Positions 12,693 through 37,819 of a stretch of DNA of 64,000 bases are shown piece by piece. Position 1 is the stretch's first letter, and each line of letters starts with the position of its first letter. The notes beneath the pieces are model-generated. The model was not told the origin of the DNA and ran no database searches. It saw nothing but the letters and a program-made list of their open reading frames with translations. The stretch spans positions 2,774-66,773 of the forward strand of contig WOYX01000038.1 in the NCBI GenBank assembly GCA_011620595.1. Direction: 5' to 3'. Position numbers and translations under genes: made by a program. The DNA comes from Bacteroidales bacterium. GTDB taxonomy: Bacteria; Bacteroidota; Bacteroidia; Bacteroidales; VadinHA17.

Positions 12693-12731
12693 ATCTTTAC
12701 AAAATCTTTATAATTGCAGGGCAAATCTTTA
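12693..12731 (+). promoter_or_regulatory. Three direct ATCTTTA heptamers upstream of trkH (candidate response-regulator operator/promoter)
   Basis: ATCTTTA at 12693, 12704 and 12725 (spacing 11 and 21 bp). Related GTCTTTA at 10107 and 10150 upstream of the kdpD-like gene. The 37-nt stretches TTATAAAGTCTTTATGAAAGCATTGCCAAATTTGTCC (10143-10179) and TTACAAAATCTTTATAATTGCAGGGCAAATCTTTACT (12698-12734) are about 70% identical. Confidence 0.4.
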
Positions 12732-12785
12732 CTTAATGCTTACGCTTCCTGGCTCACTTTTGTGCTGGAAATTCATTCTGCAAAG

Positions 12786-18756: not shown

Positions 18757-19317
18757 TTGAAACTGTATATTCGGAATATGGTCTGCATCCGTTGCAAAAT
18801 GGTTGTAAAATCCGAGCTTGAAAAGCTTGGGCTGCCCTACAGTTACATTGAACTTGGTGAAGCAGAAATAGTTGGGGAGATTACTCCCGAACAGCGTCAA
18901 AAGCTCGCGGCAGCCCTGAAGAAGACAGGGCTCGAGCTGATGGAAGACAAAAAGAAGATCCTGGTTGAAAGAATAAAGACTTCTATAATTGAGCTGGTTC
19001 ACTTCAACGACGATCAGATAAAGGTTAACCTCTCCGACTACCTGAGCCAGAAACTGAATCACAACTACACTTACCTGGCCAATCTTTTCTCTGAAACAAA
19101 GGGAACGACCATAGAAAAGTATTACCTGACGCACAAAATAGAGAGAGTCAAGGAGCTGCTTGCATACGGTGAGCTAAATCTGACTGAGATAGCGTGGAAG
19201 CTTCACTATAGCAGCGTTGCACATCTGTCAAACCAGTTCAGGAAGATGACCGGGCTTACCCCGACTCAATTCAAAAACCTGAAGGGCAGGAGACCCACGT
19301 CACCTGAAAACATGTGA
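18757..19317 (+). CDS. AraC-family regulator with N-terminal HMA-like (MxCxxC) domain
   Basis: The only in-frame start after the stop at 18742 is TTG 18757. NMVCIRCKMVVKSELEKLGL is a ferredoxin-like metal-binding motif. C-terminal AraC HTH: LTEIAWKLHYSSVAHLSNQFRKMTGLTPTQF. Confidence 0.8.
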   Translation: MKLYIRNMVCIRCKMVVKSELEKLGLPYSYIELGEAEIVGEITPEQRQKLAAALKKTGLELMEDKKKILVERIKTSIIELVHFNDDQIKVNLSDYLSQKLNHNYTYLANLFSETKGTTIEKYYLTHKIERVKELLAYGELNLTEIAWKLHYSSVAHLSNQFRKMTGLTPTQFKNLKGRRPTSPENM

Positions 19318-19377
19318 ATTATGTAACATTCTCATGAAAATGTGTAAAGGTTCTCTAAATAAAGGACTCCAACTTTG
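19311..19377 (+). promoter_or_regulatory. Composite upstream element, copy a (faces kaiC)
   Basis: CATGTGAATTATGTAAC-N15-TGTAAA-N21-CAACTTTG. TGTAA cores at 19322 and 19343 (21 bp apart). The first site overlaps the AraC stop codon (19315-19317). Confidence 0.55.
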
Positions 19378-19568
19378 TAAATCGATTTGAAACTCTCCCG
19401 GCACATCTTTGCCTGAAGAGGTTGAAAATTTTGCTATTGAAACGGATTGTCCGGGACTTTAGTCACGTTGGAACATTATAATGACCGGATAAAAGCCGGA
19501 ATTAAATCTTAACGACGGGCTATTTATCTTAATTGTACCCTGATGATAGTTTATGTAATTGAAATTCA

Positions 19569-21305
19569 ATGAAAAAGGCTGAGCAAGCGTTATCACGGGC
19601 AACTCTTCAAAAGTCTCCCACCGGTATTCAGGGATTTGATGAAATAACGGCCGGCGGGTTACCTGCCGGCAGGCCAACCCTTGTCTGTGGCAGTGCAGGA
19701 TGCGGAAAGACACTTTTCGGGATTGAGTTCCTTGTCCGTGGCGCAACACTGTATAATGAACCGGGTGTGTTTATGTCATTCGAGGAGACCAATGATGAAT
19801 TGATAAAGAATGTTGCTTCTCTCGGGTTTGACCTTGAGGATCTCATTAAGCATAAAAAAATTGCACTTGACCACGTACATATAGAGCGAAGTGAAATAGA
19901 AGAGACAGGGGAATACGACCTGGAGGGGCTGTTCATACGACTTGGTTATGCCATTGACTCCATTGGTGCTAAGCGAGTTGTGCTGGACACCATTGAGTCG
20001 TTGTTTGCCGGACTGCCAAACCAGCTGATCCTGAGGGCTGAACTACGGAGGTTATTCCGCTGGTTAAAGGAAAAAGAGGTGACCGCAATTATAACAGGCG
20101 AACGCGGAGAGGAGACGCTTACAAGGCAGGGGCTGGAGGAATATGTTTCAGACTGTGTCATCATGCTTGACCACCGCGTTACCGAACAGACATCCACGCG
20201 TCGTTTAAGAGTTATAAAATACCGTGGTTCATTGCACGGGACCAATGAGTATCCTTTTCTTATTGATGAAACCGGCTTCTCAGTACTACCGGTAACCTCG
20301 CTGGGATTAGAACATAAAGTATCCAATGAAAGAATCTCCAGCGGGATAACCGAACTTGATAAAATGCTCGAAGGAAAGGGATATTACCGTGGCAGCACCG
20401 TACTTGTCTCAGGTACTGCAGGAGTGGGAAAAACCAGCCTGGCAGCTCACTTTGCCGAGGCGGCATGCAAACGAGGAGAACGGGTTCTATATTTCTGTTT
20501 CGAAGAATCACCCAGCCAGCTGATGCGCAATATGCGTTCCATAGGTATAAATTTAGAACCATGGGTGCATAAGGGGTTGCTGCAATTCCATGCCACCAGG
20601 CCAACATTTTACGGGTTGGAAATGCACCTTGCCGTAACCCACAAGGCTGTCAATGCTTACAAACCTGAGATTGTCATTATGGACCCGATAAATACTTTCA
20701 TTCTCGGGGATACAGAGAACGAAGTCAAATCGATGCTAATGCGCATTGTTGATTTCCTTAAGGGGAATCAGATTACAGCATTGTTTACAAGTCTGACTTC
20801 AAGTGAAAGCGCCCTTGAGAGTTCCGATGTGGGAATTTCCTCACTGATAGATACCTGGTTACTGCTTCGGGATATAGAATTGAACGGCGAACGCAACAGA
20901 GGGATGTATGTACTTAAATCACGGGGAATGGCAAACTCCAATCAGATCCGGGAATTTATCCTGACTGATACCGGCGTTAAACTACGGGAGGTTTATGCCG
21001 GTGCCAACGGAGTCCTGACCGGTTCTGCACGTATTGCACAGGAGGCTCATGAAAATGCCGGACTTTTAAGACAAAAACAGGATATTGAACGAAAAAGGCG
21101 TGAGCTGGAACGAAAACGAAAAGTAATGGAAGCCCGTGTTGCAGCCTTACATGCCGAATTTAAATCGCAAGAATCGGAAGCTCTTAAAAACCTGGAAGCA
21201 GAACAGGAAATTATCAGGCTGCAGAAAAGGAATAAGATGGAAATGGCGGCAAACAGAAAATCAGTCACTGAAAAGAGGAAAACGAAGAAACACACCAAAC
21301 CATAG
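19569..21305 (+). CDS. kaiC: KaiC homologue with C-terminal charged/coiled-coil-like extension
   Basis: Two RecA-like domains with Walker A motifs GSAGCGKT and GTAGVGKT. Phosphosite-equivalent segment [13 protein letters not shown] (Ser424-Ser425) aligns to the cyanobacterial SHISTITDTIILL. About 80 extra C-terminal residues are rich in heptad-like K/R/E ([49 protein letters not shown]...). Confidence 0.9.
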
Positions 21306-21310
21306 ACCCG

Positions 21311-21652
21311 ATGAACCCAATGAACGACAAATCCGAAGTAAAAACCAAAAGAAAGAAACCGCCAAAAGCAGAAGCCAACAGGTGGGTATTGCGATTATAT
21401 GTAGCAGGTCAGTCGCCAAAGGCTCTTACTGCCTTTGCCAATCTGAAGAAAATTTGTGAAGAGCAACTGGAAGGAAAATACTCCATTGAGGTAATTGATC
21501 TCTTGATAAACCCGCAGCTGGGTAATGAAGACCAGATCCTCGCCCTGCCTACATTAGTAAGGAAATTACCTGTACCGGTTCGTAAGATAATAGGTGACCT
21601 TTCAGATACTGAGCGGGTTCTTGTCGGACTAGATCTGTTTCATGTCGACTGA
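21311..21652 (+). CDS. kaiB: KaiB homologue 1 (Lys-rich N-terminal extension)
   Basis: [75 protein letters not shown] is a canonical KaiB thioredoxin-like core. Confidence 0.9.
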
Positions 21653-21683
21653 ATATTCAATCCGGCACTTTTAAGAAGTGATC

Positions 21684-22028
21684 ATGAAAAAGAAAAAGGA
21701 AGAAGCAAAAGAAACCACGGCATCGTTTGACGAGGCAATGTCCGGATTGCATGAAGGCAGATATATTTTGCGATTATTCATTACCGGTACAACCACCAAA
21801 TCGGTCCTTGCTCTTACAAACCTCAAGAAGATTTGCGAAGAGTATCTTGAAGGCAGGTATGAGCTGGAGGTGATAGACCTGTATCAGAATCCGGGTCTGG
21901 CAAAAGACGAACAGATAATTGCGGCCCCGACTCTGATCAAAAAACTGCCACTTCCGTTCCGTCGTATTATAGGCGATATGTCAGACATTGAGAAGGTACT
22001 TATGGGGCTGGAGATCAAGAAGCTGTAA
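21684..22028 (+). CDS. kaiB: KaiB homologue 2
   Basis: [75 protein letters not shown], roughly 60% identical to KaiB-1 by eye. ATG at 21684; the ORF track starts at GTG 21678. Confidence 0.9.
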
Positions 22029-22082
22029 ATCGGGCAACAGGTTGATCAAGTTAAATAAATCAGGTTTATCATAATAAAGTCA

Positions 22083-22796
22083 ATGACCAGGACAAAAGAA
22101 CAACTCATAATTGAGAATAAGGAATTGCAATCACGCCTCGCGGAAACTGAAGAGACTCTTGCAGCGATCCGGGGCGGAGAAGTAGATGCGATTATGGTAC
22201 CTGGCAGGGATGGAGAGCAGGTCTATTCCATCAGTTCTGCGGAAACTCCCTATCGCACTTTTATCGAAGAGATGAATGAGGGAGCAGTCACTCTATCCGG
22301 AGAAGGACTGGTGATATATTGTAATCAGAGATTTGCGGAGCTGGTGAACGAACCCATTGAACGGGTTATTGGTTCATACTTTAAGCGCTTCATTATTCCG
22401 AATGACAGATCCAAATTCGATAAATTGCTTGCGCATAAAAAACAAAATATAAATAATGTCCTGACGGTATCTCTTGTCAACTCATTATATCTGAAACTGT
22501 CATTTCACCTTTTACCTGCTTATCTCCAGGGTGATAATTGCATACTTGTCGCAACCGACATATCTGAAATAAAGAGGGAGGAGAAGAAACTCCTTAAGTT
22601 ATCACACTTGCTGGAACAAAAGCTGGAAATAATACAGCAATTGCGAATGCAACTGATTGAGAAAAAAATCGACTCCGATATTGAGCTAAAAAAATTGAAA
22701 AGTTCGAACAAAAAGCTGATTCAGAAGATAGCCAGACATGAGCAGGTCGAGGCAGATTTAAAGCTTAAGCTAAAGCATAAGAAGAAGACCCTCTGA
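22083..22796 (+). CDS. Stand-alone PAS protein with C-terminal coiled coil, no output domain
   Basis: The N-terminal segment ELQSRLAETEETLAAIRGGEVDAIMV..GEQVYSISSAETPYRTFIEEMNEGAVTLSGEGLVIYCNQRFAELV is typical of PAS S-box sensor proteins. The tail is K/E/L-rich heptads. No HisKA/HATPase. Confidence 0.8.
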   Translation: MTRTKEQLIIENKELQSRLAETEETLAAIRGGEVDAIMVPGRDGEQVYSISSAETPYRTFIEEMNEGAVTLSGEGLVIYCNQRFAELVNEPIERVIGSYFKRFIIPNDRSKFDKLLAHKKQNINNVLTVSLVNSLYLKLSFHLLPAYLQGDNCILVATDISEIKREEKKLLKLSHLLEQKLEIIQQLRMQLIEKKIDSDIELKKLKSSNKKLIQKIARHEQVEADLKLKLKHKKKTL

Positions 22797-22802
22797 ATTG
22801 TC

Positions 22803-24557
22803 ATGAAAGGACTATTGTTCATAATCCTTGCATTATTTTTGTTTAACGGATGCGCTTTGATGAGAATGCCTGATTTTGCCAGGGTACCTGAGAAGTCCGG
22901 CACATACCCTCAATTTACATCCGGAGATTCGCTTATAGGGCATCTCGATGAAGACCGGTCAGGCTATGACGTTTTTTTCTACGATCTGGATCTTCACCCT
23001 GACCTTGCCGGAAAGAGACTGGGAGGCAGGGTTGATATCCATTTCAGGGCAATTTCAAGTTTCAGTGAATTACGCATCGACCTGTATGATAACCTCGACA
23101 TAATCAGCCTGAAGCTTTCCGGGGATGAGATACCTTATTCGCGTAATGACCGTGCGGTGAATATCTCACTCCCTCGTCCGCTTATGTCCGGCCATGACTA
23201 CATTCTGACTGTGGAATATGAGGGCAAACCAGCGCGTGCAAAAAATCCGCCCTGGGGAGGTGGCGTTGTGTGGAGAAAAGATGATGATGGCAATCCCTGG
23301 GTGGCAGTATCATGCGAAACCGAAGGAGGAAGCCTCTGGTTTCCATGCAAGGATCACCTTTCAGACGAACCGGACAGCGTCAGGCTCCGAATGACAGTTC
23401 CGAAAGGCCTGCAGGTTGTCTCAAACGGCATAATGCAGAGTCATACATCACTTCAGGGGGAGGAAACATATACATGGCTTACGCGGTATCCTGTCAATAT
23501 TTACAACATCACCTTCTATGTTGGTAAATACGAGCATTTCAGTGATACGATGCTTACGCCACAGGGTATTCTTGACCTTGATTATTTTGTTTTGCCTCAG
23601 AACCTTGCCAGGGCCAAAAAACACTTTTTACAGGTTAAAGATGTTTTAAACCTCTATTCCGGGTTATACGGACCATACCCCTGGATGAAGGAGGGGTTCA
23701 GACTTGTCGAGTCACCCTTTGAAGGCATGGAGCATCAGACAGCCATCGCATACGGTAGCGGTTATTCAAACCGTGGCTGGCTGGGGGGTGATTATGTCAT
23801 TGTGCATGAAGCCGCGCACGAGTGGTGGGGTAACGCAGTGTCAGTCAGTGATTTCAGTGACATCTGGCTCCATGAGGGGTTTGCAACATATTCTGAGATA
23901 CTTTTTGCGGAAAGTACACTGGGCTATGAAAACTCACTGTTGTATGCCAGATACTATATAGCTGCTTCGATAAAGAACAGATTTCCCGTTGCCGGTCCGG
24001 CAGGTGTAAGCTATTGGAACTCCGGCGACAATGATGTTTACAACAAGGGAGCCATGATACTTCATACAATCCGCAATATCGTGAACGACAGCACTCTCTT
24101 TTTTGATATTCTGCAGACTTTTTATTCTGAGCACGCGGCTGCATCGCACGTCACAACGGAGGATTTCATCAGAATTGTCGAGCGTAAAACCGGGAAGGAT
24201 TGGCATGATTTCTTTGAGGTGTACCTGTACAGGCGCGAGGTACCTGTCCTGCACTGGTATTACAGCCCTGCGGGCATCGACGGAGCTGCAGGCTCGCCAT
24301 CGGGTAACGGCGGTCCGGTCATTGCTGCAAAATGGACCGGGGTTCCGGAGGGTTTCAGTATGCCGGTTGAATTATTCTGTGAGGAGCAGAATGTTACCAT
24401 CAGGATTGATGTTTCAACAGAGGCTGAACTCTTTTATGATGAGGCACTGTCTGAATGTGCCAGGCTGACCTGTAACAGGAGACTCTCTTATTTTGATCCG
24501 GTTACGGTTAAGAGCGTACTGCTCGAGGCCGCATCATACGGTCGCGGCACAGAATAA
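22803..24557 (+). CDS. M1-family metallopeptidase lipoprotein
   Basis: Lipobox LFNGC. Zinc motif HEAAHEWWGN followed by WLHEGFATY. Starts 6 nt after the PAS gene. Confidence 0.85.
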   Translation: MKGLLFIILALFLFNGCALMRMPDFARVPEKSGTYPQFTSGDSLIGHLDEDRSGYDVFFYDLDLHPDLAGKRLGGRVDIHFRAISSFSELRIDLYDNLDIISLKLSGDEIPYSRNDRAVNISLPRPLMSGHDYILTVEYEGKPARAKNPPWGGGVVWRKDDDGNPWVAVSCETEGGSLWFPCKDHLSDEPDSVRLRMTVPKGLQVVSNGIMQSHTSLQGEETYTWLTRYPVNIYNITFYVGKYEHFSDTMLTPQGILDLDYFVLPQNLARAKKHFLQVKDVLNLYSGLYGPYPWMKEGFRLVESPFEGMEHQTAIAYGSGYSNRGWLGGDYVIVHEAAHEWWGNAVSVSDFSDIWLHEGFATYSEILFAESTLGYENSLLYARYYIAASIKNRFPVAGPAGVSYWNSGDNDVYNKGAMILHTIRNIVNDSTLFFDILQTFYSEHAAASHVTTEDFIRIVERKTGKDWHDFFEVYLYRREVPVLHWYYSPAGIDGAAGSPSGNGGPVIAAKWTGVPEGFSMPVELFCEEQNVTIRIDVSTEAELFYDEALSECARLTCNRRLSYFDPVTVKSVLLEAASYGRGTE

Positions 24558-24603
24558 CATCACTTATCCATATTAAATTGGCTCTGTGACTGAAAGCTCA
24601 GTC

Positions 24604-24672
24604 AATGTGTGAATTATGTAATTTATACATGCAATTATGTAACAGTTACACAGGCCTTCCGGGGTAAATTTG
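24604..24672 (+). promoter_or_regulatory. Composite upstream element, copy b
   Basis: AATGTGTGAATTATGTAAT-N15-TGTAAC-N21-TAAATTTG. TGTAA cores at 24617 and 24638. Perfect TAnnTTTG at 24665-24672, 72 nt before the ATG at 24744. Confidence 0.65.
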
Positions 24673-24743
24673 CAGGTAATCTCTTATTAAGTCAACATGA
24701 GAATTGACAGATCCCTTATTAATACTCACATAAATCAAAGAAA

Positions 24744-25073
24744 ATGAAGAAGATCGTTCTCTGCCTGATGGCAACGGTGATGTCATTGGCGTTCATCCCG
24801 CTAGAATTAAACGCCAAACCAAAAGTTACCGCACCGCCGATCGAGGCCCCAAGTCCTGTTACTCCTGCAGAAGCAGCCAGGGCAAACGAATTGCTGCTAA
24901 GATTGGACGAAATCAAGAAGTCTGACAAATCAGATCTTAAAGCTTCCGAAAAGAAAGAGCTGCGAAGTGAAGTACGTGCAATAAACAGTGAGCTCAAGGC
25001 TATTGGAAATGGTGTATACATTTCAGGTGCAGCAGTGATTGTTATCATCATATTACTTATCGTCCTCCTTTAA
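24744..25073 (+). CDS. Small secreted/tail-anchored coiled-coil protein
   Basis: 109 aa. Signal peptide, Pro-rich linker, charged helical segment, C-terminal TM AAVIVIIILLIVLL. Confidence 0.65.
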   Translation: MKKIVLCLMATVMSLAFIPLELNAKPKVTAPPIEAPSPVTPAEAARANELLLRLDEIKKSDKSDLKASEKKELRSEVRAINSELKAIGNGVYISGAAVIVIIILLIVLL

Positions 25074-25093
25074 GAAATTAAAATCCAACATTC

Positions 25094-25255
25094 ATGAAAA
25101 ACTTACTTTACATAATTGCGGTTGTACTTGTTATTGCATGGGCAATAGGCTTTTTTGGGTTTAGAGCGGGAGGCCTGATACATGTGCTTTTGGTCATTGC
25201 CGCCATTGTAATTCTGGTCAGGATCATCCAGGGGAGAAGAATCCTCGGAGACTGA
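25094..25255 (+). CDS. lmo0937-like small membrane protein (53 aa, below ORF-track cutoff)
   Basis: Hand-translated: MKNLLYIIAVVLVIAWAIGFFGFRAGGLIHVLLVIAAIVILVRIIQGRRILGD*. Two TM helices with the G..IH.LLVIA.I..I pattern of this widespread small-protein family. Confidence 0.7.
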   Translation: MKNLLYIIAVVLVIAWAIGFFGFRAGGLIHVLLVIAAIVILVRIIQGRRILGD

Positions 25256-25377
25256 TGTCAGATAAAATCATTAATCGCTCCGGGGTATCCGAAGTTCATC
25301 GTGCATGCCTGAAAACAAACAGATCAGTTATGGGCAGCCCGATGCCGGATATCCGGAGCAGGCTTTAAAAACAGGAA

Positions 25378-25824
25378 ATGGACACCGAAACCAACATACT
25401 GAGATCACCTGGTGCAGGAGAACTGCCAGCTGATGCTTCATCAGCTCTCAGGCAGGATCTTCCGGATTTAATCCGCAACATGAAACTAAGCAATGCATGG
25501 ATAAGGGGGAATCTCAATTCTATGATTCTTGTAAAAAATACCGAAAAGAATGTTATGCTGGTTGCATTGCATGAGGGGACGGAGATTGTTTCATACCAGT
25601 CAAATGATTCCATCACCTTTCAGATTATTGAAGGGAAGCTGGAATTTTATACAAGGAAAACTTCAGCTGCTATCGGCATGGGAGAGGTGTTGACTCTGAA
25701 TGACAAAGTGAAGTACCGGTTTACAGCCAGCGAAGAGACTGTTCTGCTTCTCTCTATTGCAAAGGATCGTGCCGGGAGTGCCATGACCACATGGAACAGG
25801 GAAGAAGCCATGGATGATTTATGA
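25378..25824 (+). CDS. Hypothetical protein, possibly cupin-fold
   Basis: 148-aa ORF. The beta-rich segment VMLVALHEGTEIVSYQSNDSITFQIIEGKLEFYTRKTSAAIGMGEVLTLNDKVKYRFTA resembles a cupin barrel. Start uncertain. Confidence 0.5.
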   Translation: MDTETNILRSPGAGELPADASSALRQDLPDLIRNMKLSNAWIRGNLNSMILVKNTEKNVMLVALHEGTEIVSYQSNDSITFQIIEGKLEFYTRKTSAAIGMGEVLTLNDKVKYRFTASEETVLLLSIAKDRAGSAMTTWNREEAMDDL

Positions 25825-25912
25825 CAGAAGCGTTATAGTGATAATTCACAAAAACCCGGTTTAACCATTAGATAAATAACCTGATGAGAGCATCAGATAA
25901 AATCATACTGAA

Positions 25913-26116
25913 ATGAGAATAAACAACAATCTTTCCAGACTGAAAATACGCGACTTTTCCCCCAGGCAACAATCACGCGATTTTCCTTTCAGGCTTAAAT
26001 TACCCAACTATCCTTCACGGCTTAAATTACGCAACTATAGGCTGAAGCTGTTTATGGAATCCCTGGTCATTGCCACGGCTGCAGTACTGCTGATGGTTAT
26101 TTTACTTTCCTCCTGA
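25913..26116 (+). CDS. Possible 67-aa protein: four 9-aa basic repeats plus a C-terminal TM helix
   Basis: MRINNNLSRLKIRDFSPRQQS/RDFPFRLKL/PNYPSRLKL/RNYRLKLFM/ESLVIATAAVLLMVILLSS. The repeats derive from a 27-bp DNA repeat, so coding status is uncertain. Confidence 0.3.
   Translation: MRINNNLSRLKIRDFSPRQQSRDFPFRLKLPNYPSRLKLRNYRLKLFMESLVIATAAVLLMVILLSS
25946..26053. repeat. Degenerate 27-bp tandem repeat x4
   Basis: Units start at 25946, 25973, 26000 and 26027. GGCTTAAATTAC(C/G)CAACTAT occurs at 25992 and 26019. Neighbouring units share 12-20 nt. Confidence 0.65.
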
Positions 26117-26200
26117 CAATGGACCGTTGCTGTAAGGCTGCCCGGATTATGGAGGCAGGCCTTGCAGGCTTTATAACATTTAAAATAAAAACAGATACAC

Positions 26201-26410
26201 ATGAAAAAAGCAGCTATTATCATTCTGATCATTGGACTGGCGTTGACGATTTTTACAACGGTCACTTACTTTACCAAAGAAAAAGTTGTTGATCTGGGAG
26301 AACTGGAGATCACGGCGAACAAGCGCCATAACCTTAACTGGTCGCCTTTTATTGGTCTTGGTGTAATGGCAGTGGGAGGAGTCTTGATGCTGGTTCCGTT
26401 CAAAAAGTAG
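26201..26410 (+). CDS. Small two-TM membrane protein
   Basis: 69 aa: MKKAAIIILIIGLALTIFTTV...FIGLGVMAVGGVLMLVPFKK. Followed by a strong terminator. Confidence 0.6.
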   Translation: MKKAAIIILIIGLALTIFTTVTYFTKEKVVDLGELEITANKRHNLNWSPFIGLGVMAVGGVLMLVPFKK

Positions 26411-26440
26411 GCTGAGCCCGGTTCCGTGCATTGAGTACAA

Positions 26441-26478
26441 AGCCTGGACTGCAAGTATTAAGCAGTCCGGGCTTTTTG
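26441..26478 (+). terminator. Intrinsic terminator after the 69-aa membrane protein gene
   Basis: 12-bp stem AGCCTGGACTGC / GCAGTCCGGGCT (one G-U pair) followed by TTTTT. The loop contains the stop codon of the convergent gene 26458-27078. Confidence 0.7.
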
Positions 26479-27078
26479 CGCATGGAAATAGGTCAGTCCG
26501 TTCAGCACGGTCATATCCATTACTTTAAACCCGTAATCCTGTAGCAATAATGAAACACTGCTCTGTGACATCCGGGTATTGGTTCTTGAATCCAGAAAGC
26601 TGTATAACCTGTTGATGAATGGAACACTCGAGTATATCGCGTTTTCAATGTCGTCAAAATAATCCCCGTCAGAAAATGCAGAAGTGCTGTTGTTCAGTTT
26701 ATATCTGTCAATTTCCTTATTGTCAATGAAACGCCCCAGCAGGTTGCTTTTCTGTGGCATGATGTGGTAACATGACCGGATAAAGTCTGTAATCCCCCTT
26801 ATCTTATTCAGTTCCGTCAGGTTCACAAGGGTCCTTGCCCTCTTCATCTCTTCGGCATCAAAATAGAAATGCTGCCTGAATGAAAGTACTACCATATCCT
26901 GCTCCTGTGCGAGGCCAAGCTTGCTGACATAATCAAGGAAAGCCGATCCGCCTTCAGCGACCAGGGTGTCGAGAATGCTGCCGGTAACCTGCAGGTTTAC
27001 CGGCCTGCTGTGCATGCTTGTGCTTCCATTTGGGTAAGAGAAAGCATCCGTCTTGTCAACCGGTAAATAATTTTTCAT
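26458..27078 (-). CDS. Hypothetical protein (206 aa)
   Basis: Long ORF with balanced composition and no motif I can name. Preceded by element copy c. Confidence 0.6.
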   Translation of the reverse strand: MKNYLPVDKTDAFSYPNGSTSMHSRPVNLQVTGSILDTLVAEGGSAFLDYVSKLGLAQEQDMVVLSFRQHFYFDAEEMKRARTLVNLTELNKIRGITDFIRSCYHIMPQKSNLLGRFIDNKEIDRYKLNNSTSAFSDGDYFDDIENAIYSSVPFINRLYSFLDSRTNTRMSQSSVSLLLQDYGFKVMDMTVLNGLTYFHAQKARTA

Positions 27079-27109
27079 GCAAGAATCTTTTTAGATAGAA
27101 TTTGTTCTG

Positions 27110-27179
27110 TAAAGATGAACATCAACCTGGCCGAAAGTGTTACATCATTCAGTATATTAGTTACATGATTCACACATGA
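27110..27179 (-). promoter_or_regulatory. Composite upstream element, copy c
   Basis: Minus strand reads TCATGTGTGAATCATGTAAC-N15-TGTAAC-N21-CATCTTTA. TGTAA cores start at 27165 and 27144. The -7-like box ends 32 nt before the start at 27078. Confidence 0.6.
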
Positions 27180-27266
27180 GAAGTAATGACATGCGTGAGC
27201 TGGACTGCAGCACAAAAAAAGAGCTGTCCCATTTCCGGGACAGCCCCTTGCAGTATAAGCATTTTG

Positions 27267-27965
27267 CTAAAAACGGTATCCCAAAGAGAGACCGTAACCT
27301 GTATTCCTGTATGCGGTCTGGTCATCAGAGATCCAGGCATACTCCGGATTGATTTTCAGCAATCCAAGCTGCGCATTCAGATGAATGAACACTCCCATCG
27401 CAAGTTCATAACCGAACAGGATATTGGCGCCGGCATCAAATGGCCTGTAATAAGCATTCTCAACCAGATCGGTCCAGTCATCAACAGAATTTTTAAATTT
27501 CACCGTTCGTTCAGTCGATACCGAATTGTACCGGGTGGTCTCCTTGCCTGAAATCCCGAAGGCCAGATAAGGTCCGAACCCGAGCAACAGATGCCCGTTG
27601 CCCAATTGTGGTCTGTACAGCAGGGTTAACGGCAACTCGACATAGGAGAGTCTGGTTGTCGTGGTATAATCACCGGAGGCCTTTGTAGGAGGGGTATAGA
27701 ATTCATTCTTTGACCCCTTGACGGAAAAGAGTAGTCCGGGCTGAAAGTCGAAATTGGGTGCTACAGGAATATTAACATTCAACCCGGCATGAAAACCTGT
27801 CAGGAGCCCATTCTCAAGCTTATCCCCGTTACTGTTCGTCCCGTTAATATTCTGGAAGTTAACCCCGCCCAGAAGACTAATGCCAATCTGAGCCTGCATC
27901 GCCAGTGATGACAGGATAAGGATTACGGATAATGTCAGAAACTTCATTTTCATTTTCATTTTCAT
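27267..27965 (-). CDS. Outer-membrane beta-barrel protein (OMP_b-brl-type porin family)
   Basis: Signal peptide ending AMQAQ, alternating beta-strand pattern, C-terminal GYGLSLGYRF. The N-terminus MKMKMKMK is encoded by (ATGAAA)x3 followed by ATGAAG. Confidence 0.8.
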   Translation of the reverse strand: MKMKMKMKFLTLSVILILSSLAMQAQIGISLLGGVNFQNINGTNSNGDKLENGLLTGFHAGLNVNIPVAPNFDFQPGLLFSVKGSKNEFYTPPTKASGDYTTTTRLSYVELPLTLLYRPQLGNGHLLLGFGPYLAFGISGKETTRYNSVSTERTVKFKNSVDDWTDLVENAYYRPFDAGANILFGYELAMGVFIHLNAQLGLLKINPEYAWISDDQTAYRNTGYGLSLGYRF

Positions 27966-28008
27966 ATAGTATTAAGATTTCTAATTTATTGAATTGATAC
28001 AGATACTA

Positions 28009-28680
28009 CTATTGGTTTGCTGCTTTTTCAGCTTCAGCTATCATCTTCTCATTGGCGGTGATCAGGAACTCCACCCTGCGGTTCTCGGTTCTCCCTTCAG
28101 CCGTATTGTTTTCGTATTTGGGAGTGGTTTCTCCATACCCTTTAATTGTAAGGCGGCTGGCTGCTGTGCCCTGGCCTTCAAGATAACCTGAAACTACTGC
28201 GGCACGCCTTTCAGACAATGCCTGGTTGTAAGCTATGCTGCCCTTGCTGTCGGTATGACCCTGTATCTCAATATCCGTATCGGGATAGGCGTCAAGCACC
28301 TTAATAAGTTTATCAAGGCTTGTTCTGGCTTCGGCTGACAATGTCGACTCGTCAAATCCGAACAGGACATTACTGTTGAATTCAACAATTATACCTTCTC
28401 CGACGCGTTCAACTTTCGCATCAGGAACGGTTTTCATTATTTCCTCAGCCTGTTTGTCCATCTGATTCCCAATTATCGCACCCGTGGCACCGCCTACCGT
28501 GGCACCGATAATAGCACCCAGGGCAGTGTTTCCCGACACTCTTCCAATAACGGCTCCCATGGCACCTCCCGTAGCAGTCCCTACAACAGCACCCTTCTGG
28601 GTCTTGTTCCAGGATGCACAGCCTGATATCATCATTACCATGCTGACAATCATGATTAAACTCACTCTCGACGTTCTCAT
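28009..28680 (-). CDS. OmpA-family lipoprotein with glycine-zipper N-terminal region
   Basis: Lipobox MISGCAS. Gly-zipper GAVVGTATGGAMGAVIGRVSGNTALGAIIGATVGGATGAIIG. OmpA_C motifs FGFDESTL, GHTDSKGS..YNQALSERRA, NRRVEF. Confidence 0.9.
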   Translation of the reverse strand: MRTSRVSLIMIVSMVMMISGCASWNKTQKGAVVGTATGGAMGAVIGRVSGNTALGAIIGATVGGATGAIIGNQMDKQAEEIMKTVPDAKVERVGEGIIVEFNSNVLFGFDESTLSAEARTSLDKLIKVLDAYPDTDIEIQGHTDSKGSIAYNQALSERRAAVVSGYLEGQGTAASRLTIKGYGETTPKYENNTAEGRTENRRVEFLITANEKMIAEAEKAANQ

Positions 28681-28736
28681 AATTAATTATTTAGATGTTT
28701 ATTAATATTCAATTTGAATAATCGGAGATATATTGA

Positions 28737-28807
28737 TAAAGGTAGACATGAAGGCGACGGTCAGCGTTACATAACTTTGTAAATGAGTTACATGATTCAC
28801 ACATGAG
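28737..28807 (-). promoter_or_regulatory. Composite upstream element, copy d (faces OmpA gene)
   Basis: Minus strand reads CTCATGTGTGAATCATGTAAC-N15-TGTAAC-N21-TACCTTTA. TGTAA cores at 28792 and 28771. The first 21 nt are identical to copy c. Confidence 0.6.
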
Positions 28808-28816
28808 ACAAGCGAT

Positions 28817-28860
28817 GATGTGTGAATTGTGTAATTCTTAATTGTCATTGTGATTGTTGT
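28817..28860 (+). promoter_or_regulatory. Partial copy e of the element (first site only), inverted relative to copy d
   Basis: GATGTGTGAATTGTGTAAT. The position +21 reads TGATT instead of TGTAA, and there is no -7 box at the expected offset. Confidence 0.35.
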
Positions 28861-29070
28861 GATAGTCTGGCTACTTAAGTTATTCGGAGCATTTGAATAC
28901 CTGAGCAACATTCAGCTTTAGCACCTGCCTCTGAACCCGGCATGGACAATCTGTGTAAATTATTGCTTGTGATTGGTGGTAAAACAACTGCCATTACATG
29001 CTCTATATGGTAATTTATTCTTTATTTTGTGTGATATTTAATTGTAAATGACACGGTTTCAAAATAAAGT

Positions 29071-32010
29071 ATGGCAGTCGTAACAAAAAAAACAAAATCA
29101 CAGGTTTCATCTGCCGGGAAAACCCCAAGAAAGGTTCCTGAAATGTTTCCGATAGTTGGAATTGGTGCTTCAGCCGGAGGGCTGGAGGCACTGGAGCAGT
29201 TTTTGGGTAACGTACCTGACAAAAGCGGGATGGCCTATGTTGTCATCCAGCATCTTGACCCTACCCAGAAGGGCATGTTGCCGGACCTGCTCCAGAGGAT
29301 CACTTCAATGAAGGTTTACCAGGCAGCAGACCGTATGCCGGTAAAGGTAAATTCCGTATACGTCATTCCTCCGAATAAAAGCATGTCAATACTCAACGGG
29401 GTTCTTCACCTGTTTGAGCCCGTTGAAACCAGGGGTATGCGTCTCCCGATCGACTTTTTCCTCCGCTCCCTGGCAGATGACAGACAGGATCTCAGCATCG
29501 GGGTCATCCTTTCAGGAATGGGTTCAGACGGAAGCACCGGCCTCAAGGCTATAAAGGAAAAAAACGGGATAGTGGTTGTGCAGGATCCTGCAGATGCAAA
29601 ATTCGACAGCATGCCCCGCAGCGCTATCGAGTTTGTGCTGGTGGATATCATAGCTGCAGCACGTGAGCTGCCGGGCAGAATCATGGAATTTCTTAAGCAC
29701 ATCCCTGCCATAAGATCAGATCTGAACACGGAAATAAAGGACAAGAGTTCGCTGGATAAAATAATTATCCTATTGCGGACTTATACCGGAAACGATTTCT
29801 CCCAGTATAAGAAAAATACCCTTTATCGCCGGATTGAAAGACGCATGTCCGTGCATAAGATAGATAAAATTGTCACTTATGTGCACTTTCTCCAGGGAAA
29901 TCCGAAGGAGGTGGAGATTCTTTTCAAGGAGTTGCTGATAGGGGTGACCGGTTTCTTCCGCGATCCCGCAGTCTGGGTAAAGCTGAAAGAAGCTCTTTTG
30001 CCGGAAGTACTTTCCGGGATGCAACCAGGCACTGTTTTGAGAGCCTGGGTCCCGGGCTGCTCCACAGGAGAAGAGGCATATTCTCTGGCAATTGTATTCG
30101 GGGAGGCACTTGAAAAGTTAAATCAGCATAGCGGCACCGCCCTGCAGATTTTTGCTACTGATATTGATCCCGATGCAATTGATATCGCCAGGAAAGGGTT
30201 GTATCCGGCAAATATTGCTGCCGATATTTCGGCCGACCGCCTCAACAGGTATTTTATTCCCACCGAAGAGGGATACCGGATCAAGACCGAGATCAGGGAA
30301 ATGGTTGTGTTTGCACAGCATAATATTATCCTGCACCCTCCTTTTACAAAGCTTGACATATTATCATGCCGCAACCTGCTGATATATATGGACCCTGAGT
30401 TGCAGAAGAAACTCATAGGGTTGTTTTACTACAGCATAAATCCTGACGGTATATTGCTGCTGGGAGGGTCCGAGACCCTTGGTAACCAGAACCACCTGTT
30501 TACTCCGGTCGACACTAAATTGAAAATATACAAACGAACACGGAGCAGTCATCTGCCTGCATATTTTGATTTTCCCTCCTCATTTTCCAGGTCAAAATCA
30601 TCAGCGATCAAAGACCTCATTCCTGACACCAGGGATCTTAATTTTCAGGCGCTTGCCGACCGTCTTCTGCTTGATTACTATACACCTGCCGGTGTACTTG
30701 TAAATGATTATGGCGATGTGATTTACATCCACGGCCATACGGGCAGATATCTTGAACCGGCTGCCGGCAAGGCGAACATGAACATCTTTGCCATGTTGCG
30801 TGAAGGGCTTCGTAATGAATTTCATCATGCCTTCCGCAGGGCTGTCACAAATAAGGAGACGGTTGTTTTGCACAACCTCCGGATCAACGTCAATGGCAAT
30901 TCACAATTAGTAGATATTGAGATCAGGTGGATAGACAAGCCGGATCTCCTGTACGGCACCTTAATGATCATCTTTGCCGAGGTGAAGGAGGTCGCTGCCA
31001 TCAGCCCTGTTTCAAAGTCAAGGGGGCATTCCAAAGACTCAACGAGGGAGCAAGAGTTGGAAACCGAGTTACAACGGATGCGTGAGGTAATGCAGAACTC
31101 TCTCGAGGAGGTTCAGACTTCACAGGAGGAGCTGCGGTCAACCAACGAGGAACTCCAGTCCACCAATGAAGAGCTGCAATCGACAAATGAAGAGCTCACA
31201 ACATCAAAGGAAGAGATGCAGAGCCTGAATGAGGAGCTTCAGACAGTGAATGCTGAATTGCAGGCCAAGGTAGATGATTACTCCAGGGTTAACAATGACA
31301 TGAAGAACCTGCTTAACAGCACTGAAATTGCCACCCTGTTTCTCGACAAGGAATTAAACATCAGACGCTTTACTCTTCAGGCCACAAAGATATTCAAACT
31401 CATTAAAAGTGACATCGGCCGGCCATTTACCGACCAGGTATCAGACCTTGATTATCCCGGACTGGCTGAAGATGCACGCGAAGTATTAAGGACTCTGATT
31501 TTTATCCAGAAAGAGATCCCGGCTGTTGACGGCCGCTGGTTCCTGGTACGCATAATGCCCTATCGTACTTTCGATGACAGGATTGACGGCCTTGTAATTA
31601 CTTTTATCAATATATCCGAGCATAAAAGAACCGAACAGAAATTGCTCCTGAGCGAAAAGAAAAACAGAATCCTGTTGAATGCCACCACTGAAGTTAAAAT
31701 AGTCCTGGCGGATGACAGTTCAGTAATGGACCTCAGCCCGGAAGCCGAATCTTTTTTCGGGAAGAACAGGGAGGAGTGTTTAAATAAAGACTTTGTCACG
31801 ATGTTTGTTCCTGAAAAATATCACAGAAGTGTTGAAAGGGATATTAAAGCGTTGCTCAGCAAGGGTTCGGGCGGGAGAATTAAAATGAGGGTTCTGACCG
31901 CAGCAGGAGAGATGCAGGTTGTAGATTTTTTTGTTAACTTATCGCTGAATAAAATGAAAAAGGCAGAAGGATTGATCCTGTCTATAAACATGCAACAGAA
32001 CAATGAATAA
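29071..32010 (+). CDS. CheB methylesterase-CheR methyltransferase-PAS multidomain protein without kinase domain
   Basis: 979 aa. CheB-like IVGIGASAGGLEALEQFL...VVIQHLDP. CheR-like FFRDPAVW...WVPGCSTGEEAYSLAI...ATDID...CRNLLIY. Heptad block STNEELQSTNEELQSTNEEL, then PAS regions. No HisKA/HATPase. Confidence 0.9.
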   Translation: MAVVTKKTKSQVSSAGKTPRKVPEMFPIVGIGASAGGLEALEQFLGNVPDKSGMAYVVIQHLDPTQKGMLPDLLQRITSMKVYQAADRMPVKVNSVYVIPPNKSMSILNGVLHLFEPVETRGMRLPIDFFLRSLADDRQDLSIGVILSGMGSDGSTGLKAIKEKNGIVVVQDPADAKFDSMPRSAIEFVLVDIIAAARELPGRIMEFLKHIPAIRSDLNTEIKDKSSLDKIIILLRTYTGNDFSQYKKNTLYRRIERRMSVHKIDKIVTYVHFLQGNPKEVEILFKELLIGVTGFFRDPAVWVKLKEALLPEVLSGMQPGTVLRAWVPGCSTGEEAYSLAIVFGEALEKLNQHSGTALQIFATDIDPDAIDIARKGLYPANIAADISADRLNRYFIPTEEGYRIKTEIREMVVFAQHNIILHPPFTKLDILSCRNLLIYMDPELQKKLIGLFYYSINPDGILLLGGSETLGNQNHLFTPVDTKLKIYKRTRSSHLPAYFDFPSSFSRSKSSAIKDLIPDTRDLNFQALADRLLLDYYTPAGVLVNDYGDVIYIHGHTGRYLEPAAGKANMNIFAMLREGLRNEFHHAFRRAVTNKETVVLHNLRINVNGNSQLVDIEIRWIDKPDLLYGTLMIIFAEVKEVAAISPVSKSRGHSKDSTREQELETELQRMREVMQNSLEEVQTSQEELRSTNEELQSTNEELQSTNEELTTSKEEMQSLNEELQTVNAELQAKVDDYSRVNNDMKNLLNSTEIATLFLDKELNIRRFTLQATKIFKLIKSDIGRPFTDQVSDLDYPGLAEDAREVLRTLIFIQKEIPAVDGRWFLVRIMPYRTFDDRIDGLVITFINISEHKRTEQKLLLSEKKNRILLNATTEVKIVLADDSSVMDLSPEAESFFGKNREECLNKDFVTMFVPEKYHRSVERDIKALLSKGSGGRIKMRVLTAAGEMQVVDFFVNLSLNKMKKAEGLILSINMQQNNE

Positions 32011-32554
32011 GAAGGAGCCAAATCTAACAGAAAGTCAGTTACTCCGGTTAAAGGCTGAAGAGAAGCTGAAGAAGAAACGAAGGAAAATACCGTCAGAGAT
32101 TCCGGAAGCTGACGCGAAAAAACTTCTCCATGAACTTCAGGTTCATCAGATAGAACTGGAGATGCAGAATGAGGAGTTGAGGCAGGCAAATGCTATTGCC
32201 GAAGAGGCTCTCAGGCGTTATACCATGCTATATGATTTTGCACCCATGGGCTACTTTATCCTGGAGAGTGACGGCAGCATCGCGGATCTCAATTTCACCG
32301 GCGCCGAGATTTTGGGCGATAAGCGTTTCAGCCTTCTTAACAGTAACTTTAAGCTGTTCATTGCCGATTCCTACAAGCCGGTATTCAATAAGTTCTTCAG
32401 GAAAGTCTATACAAGTACCGCGAAGGAGTCATGTGAGCTTGTTCTCGCATACAATGGCAGGACTCCCCGTCATGTATATGTCGAAGGAGTCGTCACCGGG
32501 GATGAACGGCAATGCCTCCTTTCTGTAGTCGATATCTCGGGATTTAAAAGGTGA
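32003..32554 (+). CDS. Stand-alone PAS protein (overlaps the CheB-CheR-PAS gene by 8 nt)
   Basis: LLHELQVHQIELEMQNEELRQANAIAEEALRRYTMLYDFAPMGYFILESDGSI... is the linker-plus-PAS module usually found inside long PAS/kinase proteins. Confidence 0.8.
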   Translation: MNKKEPNLTESQLLRLKAEEKLKKKRRKIPSEIPEADAKKLLHELQVHQIELEMQNEELRQANAIAEEALRRYTMLYDFAPMGYFILESDGSIADLNFTGAEILGDKRFSLLNSNFKLFIADSYKPVFNKFFRKVYTSTAKESCELVLAYNGRTPRHVYVEGVVTGDERQCLLSVVDISGFKR

Positions 32555-32620
32555 TCATCTCCATTACCTGATATCCGGCTTACCTTGCCGGATATCTGAG
32601 ATTCCGATACCACCGGTCAA

Positions 32621-32790
32621 CGGGGGCTCCCGGTTCTTAGCCCGGGTTTTCTCCTCTTAACTGACGCGGGTTTTCACCTGATTTTTAGCACGGGGTTTTC
32701 TCCTCTTAACTGACACGGCCACCTCCTACCTTCTTGCACGGGTTTTCCACCCTTTTCTGACGTGGGAGTTATCCTCTTTCCCCGGGTGTG
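32621..32790. repeat. Degenerate ~24-bp-period tandem array (7-8 units headed by GGGTTTTC)
   Basis: GGGTTTTC at 32644, 32668, 32693 and 32740, with weaker heads at 32621, 32717, 32763 and 32784. The perfect 22-mer GGGTTTTCTCCTCTTAACTGAC occurs at 32644 and 32693. Confidence 0.7.
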
Positions 32791-32851
32791 AATTATATAA
32801 TTCTTTGCCGGAATTGTGTAATGGTTCTGTTGATGAAAAAATGAATCTTTG
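32784..32851 (+). promoter_or_regulatory. Composite upstream element, copy f
   Basis: GGGTGTGAATTATATAAT-N15-TGTAAT-N21-AATCTTTG. Cores at 32796 (TATAA) and 32817 (TGTAA). The -7-like box is at 32844-32851, 67 nt before the ATG at 32919. Confidence 0.55.
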
Positions 32852-32918: not shown

Positions 32919-33323
32919 ATGAAAACAAAAATTTTTACACTCACCCTGTTCATTCTGATTGCTTTCTGGTTCACCTCCTGCTCCAATAAGACATTTTTCC
33001 TTCAGTCATCAGTACTACCGGCAGCTGAAGGTTATGTAGAAGTATCCAGAGATAAGTCCGAGAACTATAAAATTAAGCTGGAATTAAAGAATTTTGCCGG
33101 GGCCGACAGACTGGATCCTTCAAACCTGACCTATGTGGTCTGGATGGTCACAGCAAAGGAAGAAGCAGTAAATATTGGACGGATAAGTACATCGAATTCG
33201 CTGAAAGTATCTTTTGAGACACTAAGTTCCTTCAAGCCGGTTAAGATATTTATTACGGCCGAAGAACAGGAGAATGTCAGATATCCGGGTCCCATGGTGA
33301 TCCTGACAACTGACAGGTTTTAG
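32919..33323 (+). CDS. Hypothetical lipoprotein (134 aa)
   Basis: Start set at ATG 32919 (MKTKIFTLTLFILIAFWFTSCS lipobox). Beta-rich mature part. Confidence 0.7.
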   Translation: MKTKIFTLTLFILIAFWFTSCSNKTFFLQSSVLPAAEGYVEVSRDKSENYKIKLELKNFAGADRLDPSNLTYVVWMVTAKEEAVNIGRISTSNSLKVSFETLSSFKPVKIFITAEEQENVRYPGPMVILTTDRF

Positions 33324-37567: not shown

Positions 37568-37705
37568 ATAAAGTCGGAAGTCCGTAAAGTCGGAAGTCCG
37601 TAAAGTCCGTAAAGTCCGTAAAGTCCATAAAGTCCGTAAAGTCGGAAGTCCGTAAAGTCCGTAAAGTCCATAAAGTCGGAAGTCCGTAAAGTTAAAAGTC
37701 GAAAG
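37568..37705. repeat. Tandem array of ~17 units of 8-9 nt (AAGTCCGTA / AAGTCGGA) starting 11 nt after the ggt stop
   Basis: AAAGTCGG AAGTCCGT AAAGTCGG AAGTCCGT AAAGTCCGT AAAGTCCGT AAAGTCCAT ... This is the source of the spurious LRTLRTLRTSDFTDFRLYGLYGLYG ORFs. Confidence 0.85.
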
Positions 37706-37770: not shown

Positions 37771-37819
37771 AATTCTTAATTCATAATTCATAATTCTTAA
37801 TTCATAATTCATAATTCCT
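37771..37819. repeat. Seven tandem 7-mers (AATTCTT/AATTCAT), i.e. a 21-nt unit x2.3
   Basis: AATTCTT AATTCAT AATTCAT AATTCTT AATTCAT AATTCAT AATTCCT. Preceded by the hairpin AGCCTGT-N7-ACAGGCT (37743-37763). Confidence 0.85.

Follow-up and report, generated by a model that had tools for sequence, protein, structure and literature searches.

The DNA analysed here, hereafter the window, is a stretch of 64,000 nucleotides (nt) from a Bacteroidales bacterium (contig WOYX01000038.1, positions 2,774 to 66,773), in which an upstream element occurs six times (copies a to f) between 19.3 and 32.9 kb, in front of kaiC and several other genes. Directly before copy a lies a gene for an AraC/XylS-type protein of 186 amino acids (aa), whose last codon and stop codon, ATG TGA (19312-19317), fall inside the distal box of that copy. 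An earlier reading of this DNA (the original prediction) had described the six copies but had not connected them with the gene that ends inside one of them. The rest of the window carries housekeeping genes and, adjoining TrkH at 10199-12456, the genes of a DUF4118 kinase and an OmpR-type response regulator. The comparisons presented below support the elements as the promoter signature of a Bacteroidota-wide regulon which includes kaiC and many small stress-type proteins.

Allowing for at most one mismatch, the 15-mer TGTGAATYRTRTAAY was matched six times in the window against an expectation of 0.07, and none of 100 shuffled sequences reached six matches. The TGTGAAT of these matches starts at 19313+, 24608+, 27174-, 28801-, 28821+ and 32787+, and the coordinates and strands originally assigned to the six copies were all correct. 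In copies a, b, c, d and f a second core, (A)ATYRTGTAAY, places its TGTAA exactly 21 bp downstream of the first, and a -7 box of the form nAnnTTTR stands behind it after 21 intervening nt; the register proved exact in all five, and the boxes (CAACTTTG, TAAATTTG, CATCTTTA, TACCTTTA and AATCTTTG) read as they had been quoted. The finer details were also borne out, namely the identical stretch TCATGTGTGAATCATGTAACT of copies c and d, the TATAA variant of the first core in copy f, the single core of copy e, which reads TGATTG at the position of the second, and the lack of TTTG at the -33 position of the five promoters.

To score the complete element, hereafter the module, a matrix of 69 positions was trained on loci L009-L085, that is, on other genomes only (loci from other genomes bear the prefix L throughout). 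The five full copies scored 47.3 to 67.2 bits, copy e scored -11.4 and all else in the window scored below -12, the maximum on random sequence being -15.5. The window thus has five modules that are complete and a sixth that is a fragment, all of them inside 14 kb (Table 1), and the scan of the full 64 kb returned no further copy, in keeping with the earlier statement that the element was not seen in the housekeeping half. A match with two mismatches at 8128 was considered as a further copy and rejected, since the full matrix scores it as noise. The repeated unit exceeds its earlier description, with a distal site of about 19 conserved bp (ATGTGTGAATnATGTAACt) and a proximal site which reads AATTgTGTAAC; in general form the sites can be given as TGTG-N5-TGTAAC-N6-nnnn-N5-TGTAAC, or written as ATGTGTGAATnATGTAAC and AATTGTGTAAC. 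A site of the CRP/FNR type was also tried and rejected: single modules are not palindromic, and the TCACA...TGTGA at 28790-28825 is formed by modules d and e standing back to back.

Table 1. Positions in the window of the candidate regulator gene, the modules and the genes behind them
Feature	Position	Strand	Composition	Predicted TSS near	Score (bits)	Remarks
Candidate activator gene, 186 aa	18757..19317	+	HMA-like N-terminal domain (1-62, loop NMVCIRC), linker helix, AraC/XylS DNA-binding domain			
Module a	19310..19377	+	distal 19310-19328 (ACATGTGAATTATGTAACA), proximal 19338-19348 (AAATGTGTAAA), -7 box 19370-19377 (CAACTTTG)	19382	55.4	invariant blocks across six species
Target operon a	19569..24557	+	kaiC 19569-21305, kaiB 21311-21652, kaiB 21678-22028, PAS 22083-22796, M1 peptidase 22803-24557			Pfam
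Module b	24605..24672	+	distal 24605-24623, proximal 24633-24643 (AATTATGTAAC), -7 box 24665-24672 (TAAATTTG)	24677	64.4	kept in L001, L002, L007, L008, L010
Target operon b	24744..25824	+	109-aa tail-anchored protein 24744-25073, lmo0937-family/DUF5670 membrane protein 25094-25255, 148-aa cupin-like protein 25378-25824			Pfam, NCBIfam
Module c	27110..27177	-	distal 27177-27159, proximal 27149-27139 (AATGATGTAAC), -7 box 27117-27110 (CATCTTTA)	27105	65.1	
Target of module c	26458..27078	-	206-aa protein			
Module d	28737..28804	-	distal 28804-28786, proximal 28776-28766 (AGTTATGTAAC), -7 box 28744-28737 (TACCTTTA)	28732	67.2	back to back with relic e
Target operon d	27267..28680	-	glycine-zipper OmpA 28680-28009, outer-membrane beta-barrel protein 27965-27267			Pfam OmpA, Gly-zipper_Omp, OMP_b-brl_2
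Relic e	28818..28921	+	intact distal site 28818-28836; gene tail (..IVWLLKLFGAFEYLSNIQL*) ends 28921			
Module f	32784..32851	+	distal 32784-32802 (TATAA variant), proximal 32812-32822 (AATTGTGTAAT), -7 box 32844-32851 (AATCTTTG)	32856	47.3	
Target of module f	32919..33323	+	134-aa predicted lipoprotein			

The comparative sample was built at the species level, with one genome per species, and comprised 80 loci carrying orthologues of the AraC-type regulator with 60-92% identity. These came from Bacteroidales metagenome-assembled genomes (MAGs), Prolixibacteraceae, Draconibacterium, Mariniphaga, Carboxylicivirga, Ancylomarina, Alkalitalea, Saccharicrinis, Chitinophagaceae, Lacihabitans and Mucilaginibacter. 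At loci whose orthologues were 75-93% identical, modules were found at the same promoters with the spacer DNA diverged, so that the check on conservation at orthologous genes which the original prediction had proposed turned out in its favour. A loose pattern with 11 fixed bases gave 182 matches in 1.33 Mb in comparison to about 0.6 by chance (our own estimate, 2 x 1.33 Mb / 4^11). When 178 unique sites were turned into a profile, the positions left free by the search pattern were strongly conserved at fixed offsets, with A-T-G before the first box, AATTgTGTAAC at +26..+36 and tAcCTTTg at +58..+65, and positions 10-15 recurred at 31-36. The distal site is defined by TGTG at 1-4 and TGTAAC at 10-15, and the proximal site by its box B and the AAT, with low information at positions 19-25. 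This profile shows that the fixed geometry is a property of hundreds of promoters in many genera.

The sites are also placed as promoters would be. Among those above 30 bits (n=420), 6% fell in an open reading frame (ORF) of at least 150 codons in comparison to 68% of random positions from the same loci, and 128 of the 136 full sites had an ATG-initiated ORF within 350 nt downstream, with a median distance of about 41 nt after the box. They are thus intergenic and pointed at the downstream ATG, which answers the second check, that on orientation and intergenic bias. As judged by these sequence comparisons, the regulon is conserved over Bacteroidia, Chitinophagia, Cytophagia and Sphingobacteriia.

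The protein encoded beside copy a matched Pfam HTH_18 (3.6e-17) and HTH_AraC (1.3e-7), and its AlphaFold2 (AF2) model, with a predicted local distance difference test score (pLDDT) of 87, consists of a beta-alpha-beta-beta-alpha-beta domain, a linker helix and a seven-helix AraC domain. The secondary structure elements of the N-terminal domain are E2-6, H11-23, E28-32, E35-38, H44-56 and E60-62, at a pLDDT of about 90, which is the order of the ferredoxin-like fold of heavy-metal-associated (HMA) domains. Foldseek matched the C-terminal half to MarA, SoxS, AraC, AdpA, Rns and ToxT, and the N-terminal domain to the HMA proteins TTHA1718, GolB, CopZ and HAH1, with 25-29% identity, E values of 0.05-0.2 and target template modelling (TM) scores of 0.57-0.68; the loop NMVCIRC takes the position of the HMA motif MxCxxC. 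In 115 unique members of the family the loop reads CxxC in about 68 and SxxC in about 46, the second cysteine being nearly invariant. Thousands of close homologues exist, annotated mostly as Bacteroidales or Bacteroidia MAGs, and the family amounts to about 921 clusters at 50% identity (E <=1e-30), nearly all of about 186 aa. NCBIfam holds no model of the family and returned only matches to the DNA-binding domain below cutoff, and a sequence search of the PDB likewise returned DNA-binding-domain matches only, with no solved structure of the regulator. Two or three paralogues of the regulator, some of them in tandem, occur at L175 (6624-8854), L131 (6578-10706), L079 (10557 onward) and L039/L040 (which belong to the same MAG). 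In several loci a paralogue is the first gene behind a module, which suggests a regulatory cascade or cross-regulation.

The connection between this family and the module was assessed from both sides. Starting from the regulator, one or more sites above 30 bits lay within 10 kb in 75 of the 80 species-level loci, and the density of sites was highest in the first kilobase past the regulator 3' end. Of 120 regulator genes, 52 ended in a stop codon that is part of the distal box (RTG-TGA-AT), and another 10 had a site within 300 bp. Starting from the motif, 120 metagenome fragments with a mean length of about 5.5 kb were chosen by a motif pattern blind to the regulator, and 27 of them, or 16 of the 47 that were at least 5 kb long, encoded a full-length regulator homologue with 50-72% identity, where we estimate a chance frequency well under 1%, as the gene occurs once or a few times per genome. 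Among orthologues with 60-93% identity the two helix-turn-helix motifs hardly vary, and the module motif is conserved to the same degree. Because of this linkage in both directions and the near-invariance of the helix-turn-helix motifs and of the motif alike, the neighbouring AraC-type regulator is the best candidate for the protein that binds the modules. Our reading is that this HMA-like/AraC-domain protein acts like XylS or AraC at the two direct repeats, to which we would give a probability of roughly 0.75 on the sequence evidence.

The modules could instead be genuine activator sites bound by an unlinked regulator of the LytTR or OmpR/PhoB type, both of which the original prediction had brought forward, with the AraC-type gene as a passenger or co-located member, and we consider this unlikely. 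Promoters activated by LytTR regulators such as AgrA, ComE and AlgR do carry upstream direct repeats with a register of about 21 bp, as the modules do, the window does hold an OmpR-type regulator with its histidine kinase, the island holds the CheB-CheR-PAS protein and PAS proteins, and the promoter of the AraC-type gene itself has no module. However, no LytTR domain was found in the window ORFs scanned with Pfam or in the gene tables of L001, L002 and L005, and the conserved neighbourhoods contained no other conserved regulator besides the AraC-type gene. The register agrees with LytTR repeats of 9 bp placed 12-13 bp apart, but the distal block has 19 contiguous conserved bp with two boxes, one of which is not repeated proximally, which suits an AraC domain with two helix-turn-helix motifs better than a repeat of about 9 bp. 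The sole OmpR-type regulator of the window (11773-12456) is not syntenic in relatives, the pair being missing from the syntenic region of L002, and the 10-11 bp periodicity of OmpR/PhoB sites is not seen in the modules, where the distance from TGTGA to TGTAA is 9 bp and the whole unit recurs at 21 bp. Furthermore, the AraC-type gene is tied to the motif both ways over four Bacteroidota classes.

The promoters themselves were characterized by means of 416 unique sites. In the -7 box, A59 was present in 401, TTT in 378 and a final G or A in 386 of them (consensus tAcCTTTg), and TTTG anywhere in the -33 interval was found in only 32, so that 92% are without it. The housekeeping -7 element of Bacteroidota is TAnnTTTG, which is located at -12..-5 in Flavobacterium psychrophilum promoters with mapped transcription start sites (TSSs) (PMC9723704). 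With the -7 box of the modules set at -12..-5, the distal 15-mer is predicted at about -69/-55 and the proximal one at about -48/-34. The fixed geometry and the missing -33 element lend comparative support to the activator-dependent layout that the original prediction had put forward.

We propose that the elements form the upstream halves of promoters which depend on an activator and are used by the Bacteroidota housekeeping sigma factor, each with a good -7 box (nAnCTTTG), no -33 TTTG and, in place of the -33 element, two direct-repeat binding sites which would face the same side of the helix because they are 21 bp apart. The distal site, at about -69 to -55, would be the strong one, with 15-19 bp and the two boxes of TGTG-N5-TGTAAC, and the proximal site, at about -48 to -34 and reduced to AAT-N2-TGTAAC, would be weaker and lie beside the position of sigma region 4. 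The 186-aa regulator would bind with one protomer per site, its two helix-turn-helix motifs on the two boxes, and the proximal protomer would recruit RNA polymerase by class II activation as in XylS, AraC, MekR and MtlR. The HMA-like domain, with its nearly invariant cysteine, is probably the signal and dimerisation module, and may act as a thiol or metal switch.

The same protein might also be a repressor or anti-activator which blocks RNA polymerase at -33 until a signal arrives, and we hold this to be slightly less probable again than binding by an unlinked regulator. The proximal site does overlap the region of expected polymerase contact, and some AraC-family proteins are known to repress, but promoters of which 92% are without the -33 TTTG should be weak without help. 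The distance from the sites to the -7 box is rigid, for which an operator has no need, and the predicted positions match those of the class II activator sites of XylS, MekR and MtlR (PMC4514859, PMC5481539). A further explanation, in which an alternative sigma factor of the extracytoplasmic function (ECF) type would recognise the TGTAAC core as its -35 and the downstream box as its -10 element, is very improbable: TGTAAC resembles the GAAC-type -35 of ECF sigma factors and genes for such factors are found among the downstream genes, but the box is the canonical housekeeping TAnnTTTG (PMC9723704) and not a CGT-type -10, the 21 nt from core to box are too long, and the stronger distal site 21 bp upstream would be left unexplained. 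A last alternative, in which the copies have no regulatory function and belong to a dispersed repeat (for instance a miniature mobile element or a recombination site), is scarcely credible, for although six near-identical 15-mers lie within 14 kb and one copy lies beside a deletion, orientation bias, intergenic placement and conservation at orthologous genes contradict it, with 94% of the sites outside long open frames at about 41 nt (median) from a start codon and the same promoters carrying the element in genomes with 60-90% identical proteins, and moreover only three boxes are conserved with freely varying spacers and no terminal inverted repeats.

The proposed action of the AraC-type regulator at two direct repeats was compared with known systems. 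A 21-bp direct-repeat register with the proximal site over the -35 region is the classical AraC/XylS layout (PMC4514859, PMC5481539). The sites of XylS read TGCA-N6-GGNTA-N6-TGCA-N6-GGNTA, those of MekR read CACC-N5-CTTCAA-N6-CACC-N5-CTTCAA, and AraC uses two 17-bp half-sites (PMC4514859); in each of the two 15-bp direct repeats of XylS, two recognition helices read box A and box B (PMC5481539), and the MtlR promoter owes its inducibility to a weaker proximal block (PMC4514859, PMC5481539). The modules resemble those of XylS at Pm of the TOL plasmid, MekR and MtlR in their two 15-bp half-sites in direct repeat on the 21-bp register; in those systems each half-site has a 5' and a 3' box about one helical turn apart and the proximal site abuts or overlaps the -35 element, and the unequal distal and proximal blocks of MtlR are paralleled by the unequal sites of the modules. 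They differ in their box sequences (TGTG-N5-TGTAAC), in the degenerate proximal box A and in the Bacteroidota -7 box TAnnTTTG. The regulator, at 186 aa, differs from XylS in that an HMA-like domain of about 60 residues replaces the cupin-type effector and dimerisation domain of about 200 residues, and its putative regulon covers dozens of small stress-type genes and not a single catabolic operon.

A similar arrangement is found for AraC at araI1-araI2 of E. coli, where the half-sites are in direct repeat 21 bp apart. There the distal I1 is strong and the proximal I2, which overlaps the -35, is weak, and occupancy of the weak site is the regulated step. Unlike AraC, the candidate has a different sensor domain and many promoters, and there is no evidence at the modules of a distant looping site of the O2 type. 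MarA, SoxS and Rob, two of which were among the Foldseek matches, are likewise small AraC-family proteins with a dispersed stress regulon and an asymmetric two-box site of about 20 bp, but MarA and SoxS lack a sensor domain and, as monomers, recognise one site that may face either way, whereas every module has two sites of constant orientation and spacing and the candidate regulator carries an N-terminal domain. No description of the motif, the AraC-type regulator or the regulon was found in the literature, and the system as we read it combines an AraC/XylS mechanism, a new sensor domain and a widely distributed, undescribed regulon.

Several observations weigh against this interpretation. The link between regulator and motif is one of position and co-occurrence only, and the AraC-type gene could be a passenger or a target. 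Five of the 80 regulator loci have no site within 10 kb, and the upstream region of the regulator in the window, being without a module, gives no signal of autoregulation. The proximal site has no recognisable box A, in which it departs from the XylS sites, and in genomes with two or three paralogues the site preferences of these are indistinguishable. With regard to the sensor, the Pfam HMA model over the whole N-terminal domain gave E=0.16 and 12.8 bits against a cutoff of 24.8, which is far below threshold. The occurrence of SxxC in about 40% of the family weakens the classical metal-binding reading, since a two-cysteine metal site cannot then be general, and the domain may possess a single reactive thiol or have a purely structural or dimerisation role. 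The subfamilies with CxxC and SxxC showed no difference in the motif variants they prefer.

Most of the gene calls that had been made around the modules were confirmed by Pfam and NCBIfam. KaiC matched NCBIfam PRK09302 with 750 bits (cutoff 408) and KaiB matched PRK09301 with 112 bits (cutoff 110), and the module-led operon from kaiC to the M1 peptidase is likewise found in L001, L002, L007, L008 and L010. A module lies within 400 bp upstream in 11 of 12 homologues of the 109-aa tail-anchored protein and in 5 of 7 homologues of the 134-aa lipoprotein from other loci, and it is upstream of 12 of 18 OmpA homologues. The 206-aa protein has no Pfam or NCBIfam match, and its homologues have a module in front in L007, L010, L028 and L091; the 134-aa lipoprotein belongs to no Pfam or NCBIfam family. 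The 148-aa cupin-like protein was examined as kin of the commonest downstream family (about 115 aa) and rejected (BLASTP E=0.25); by eye it looks closer to a 134-aa target of the Cupin_2 type.

Copy e had been described as facing cheB-cheR-PAS with the first site only. Alignment with L001, L007 and L008, which at this position have a full module and an intact gene for a 61-aa membrane protein (PF28077 family), revealed a deletion of 173 bp between two short direct repeats (ATTGTCrTTGTG), with its junction inside the repeat at about 28841-28852. Lost with it were about 38 codons of that gene as well as the -7 box and the proximal site. Copy e is therefore not a promoter with a single site that serves cheB-cheR; on the evidence of the alignment it is a dead promoter and a deletion relic. 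Modules d and e are divergent with their distal sites about 13 bp apart (28786-28836), an arrangement kept in L001, L002, L007 and L008, and such back-to-back modules could bring four protomers onto one short region.

Near the regulator, the first genes behind modules most often encoded a cupin-like protein of about 115 aa (24), the 109-aa tail-anchored protein (12), OmpA/glycine-zipper proteins (9), the 61-aa membrane protein (8), the lmo0937 family (8), B12/radical-SAM proteins (5) and KaiC (4), and CsbD, YtxH, ECF sigma factors, DJ-1/PfpI, SPFH, glycosyltransferase, fatty-acid desaturase, PAP2 and a regulator paralogue were also found. The metagenome sample, which was selected by motif and has less bias towards the regulator neighbourhood, gave CsbD (24), the lmo0937 family (16), glycine-zipper OmpA (15), an Ig-like lipoprotein (13), an MlaE-like permease (10) and cupin-like proteins (7), followed by YtxH, regulator paralogues, histidine kinases, and bacterioferritin-like and YceI-like proteins. 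The labels Ig-like lipoprotein, MlaE-like, bacterioferritin-like and YceI-like were assigned by eye and the others by Pfam or NCBIfam. By analogy, this target content is of the kind seen in general or envelope stress regulons, and the stress-type output suggested in the original prediction fits CsbD, YtxH, the lmo0937 family, glycine-zipper OmpA, DJ-1/PfpI, SPFH and ECF sigma. It is similar to the content of the sigma-B regulons of Bacillus and Listeria and the alphaproteobacterial EcfG regulons, with the difference that control is proposed to be by an activator at housekeeping-sigma promoters and not by an alternative sigma factor. Genes for ECF sigma factors are among the first genes behind modules at L023 (10613+) and L073 (11556+), and the regulon may thus turn on secondary sigma-factor regulons.

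The inclusion of kaiC held throughout the sample, where kaiC occurred in eight species-level loci in three gene arrangements and had a module upstream in all eight. In six of these it lies directly behind the regulator. The L015 locus has kaiC and the regulator in divergent orientation (site 9855-, 50.5 bits) and the M1 peptidase directly behind the regulator, and in L017 kaiC is 7 kb away (site 17459-, 44 bits). When six kaiC promoters were aligned, the invariant blocks were the two sites and CAACTTTGT. Within this clade, and not phylum-wide, kaiC is a conserved member of the regulon as far as the sequences indicate. The placement of the kaiC cassette relative to the regulator varies (L015 7721-12474, L017 15631-17459), and the arrangement in L015 suggests that, in the lineage of the window, promoter and peptidase were separated by insertion of the kaiC-kaiB-kaiB-PAS block. 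To our knowledge, the Kai proteins of Bacteroidetes are of the KaiB2/KaiC2 type only. Systems of the KaiC2 type outside cyanobacteria have been tied to stress (PMC5520375), with which the membership of kaiC in a stress-type regulon would be consistent.

The kaiC leader extends for about 190 nt past the predicted TSS (window 19378-19568), and part of it, TTTTGCTATTGAAACGGATTGTCCGGGACTTTAG, is conserved in L001 and L008; in L007 (10640-10995) and L010 (10640-10982) the leader is instead about 430 nt long and contains an ORF of 47-49 aa. A search of the whole window with Rfam at the gathering threshold gave no match, so neither the kaiC leader nor the modules correspond to a known RNA. Outside the island, the DUF4118 histidine kinase, the OmpR-type response regulator and TrkH (10199-14231) are neighbours, as a KdpDE-like pair beside a potassium transporter. 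Two tandem-repeat arrays (37600-37692 and 37771-37817) lie between the gamma-glutamyltranspeptidase and M23 peptidase genes, one with the 9-bp unit GTAAAGTCC repeated 10.8 times and the other with a 7/21-bp unit AATTCAT, and the housekeeping half contains a single ORF of 2468 aa (45730-53136).

Gene regulation in Bacteroidota outside polysaccharide use is poorly charted, and we know of no RpoS, sigma-B or EcfG-type system and of no defined general stress regulator in this phylum. A tentative proposal, to which we would give clearly less than even odds, is that the regulator and its module are the long-missing master switch by which Bacteroidota would control a general or envelope stress response, in which redox or metal sensing through the single conserved cysteine of the HMA-like domain would be passed on to dozens of housekeeping-sigma promoters, driving CsbD, YtxH, lmo0937-type, OmpA, cupin and DJ-1 proteins, secondary ECF sigma factors and the regulator's own paralogues, and in some lineages the KaiC-KaiB timer as well. 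If this is true, the Kai hourglass would be coupled to a stress programme in some lineages. The analysis pairs a highly specific promoter signature with a candidate regulator family that lacks a curated family. As the signature has about 40 informative positions, it can be scored in any genome, and a module upstream of a gene can serve in annotation as a mark of membership in the regulon. The control of many small proteins, the signal read by the HMA-like sensor and the role of KaiC and KaiB in a non-photosynthetic lineage of the anaerobe type are thereby opened to test.

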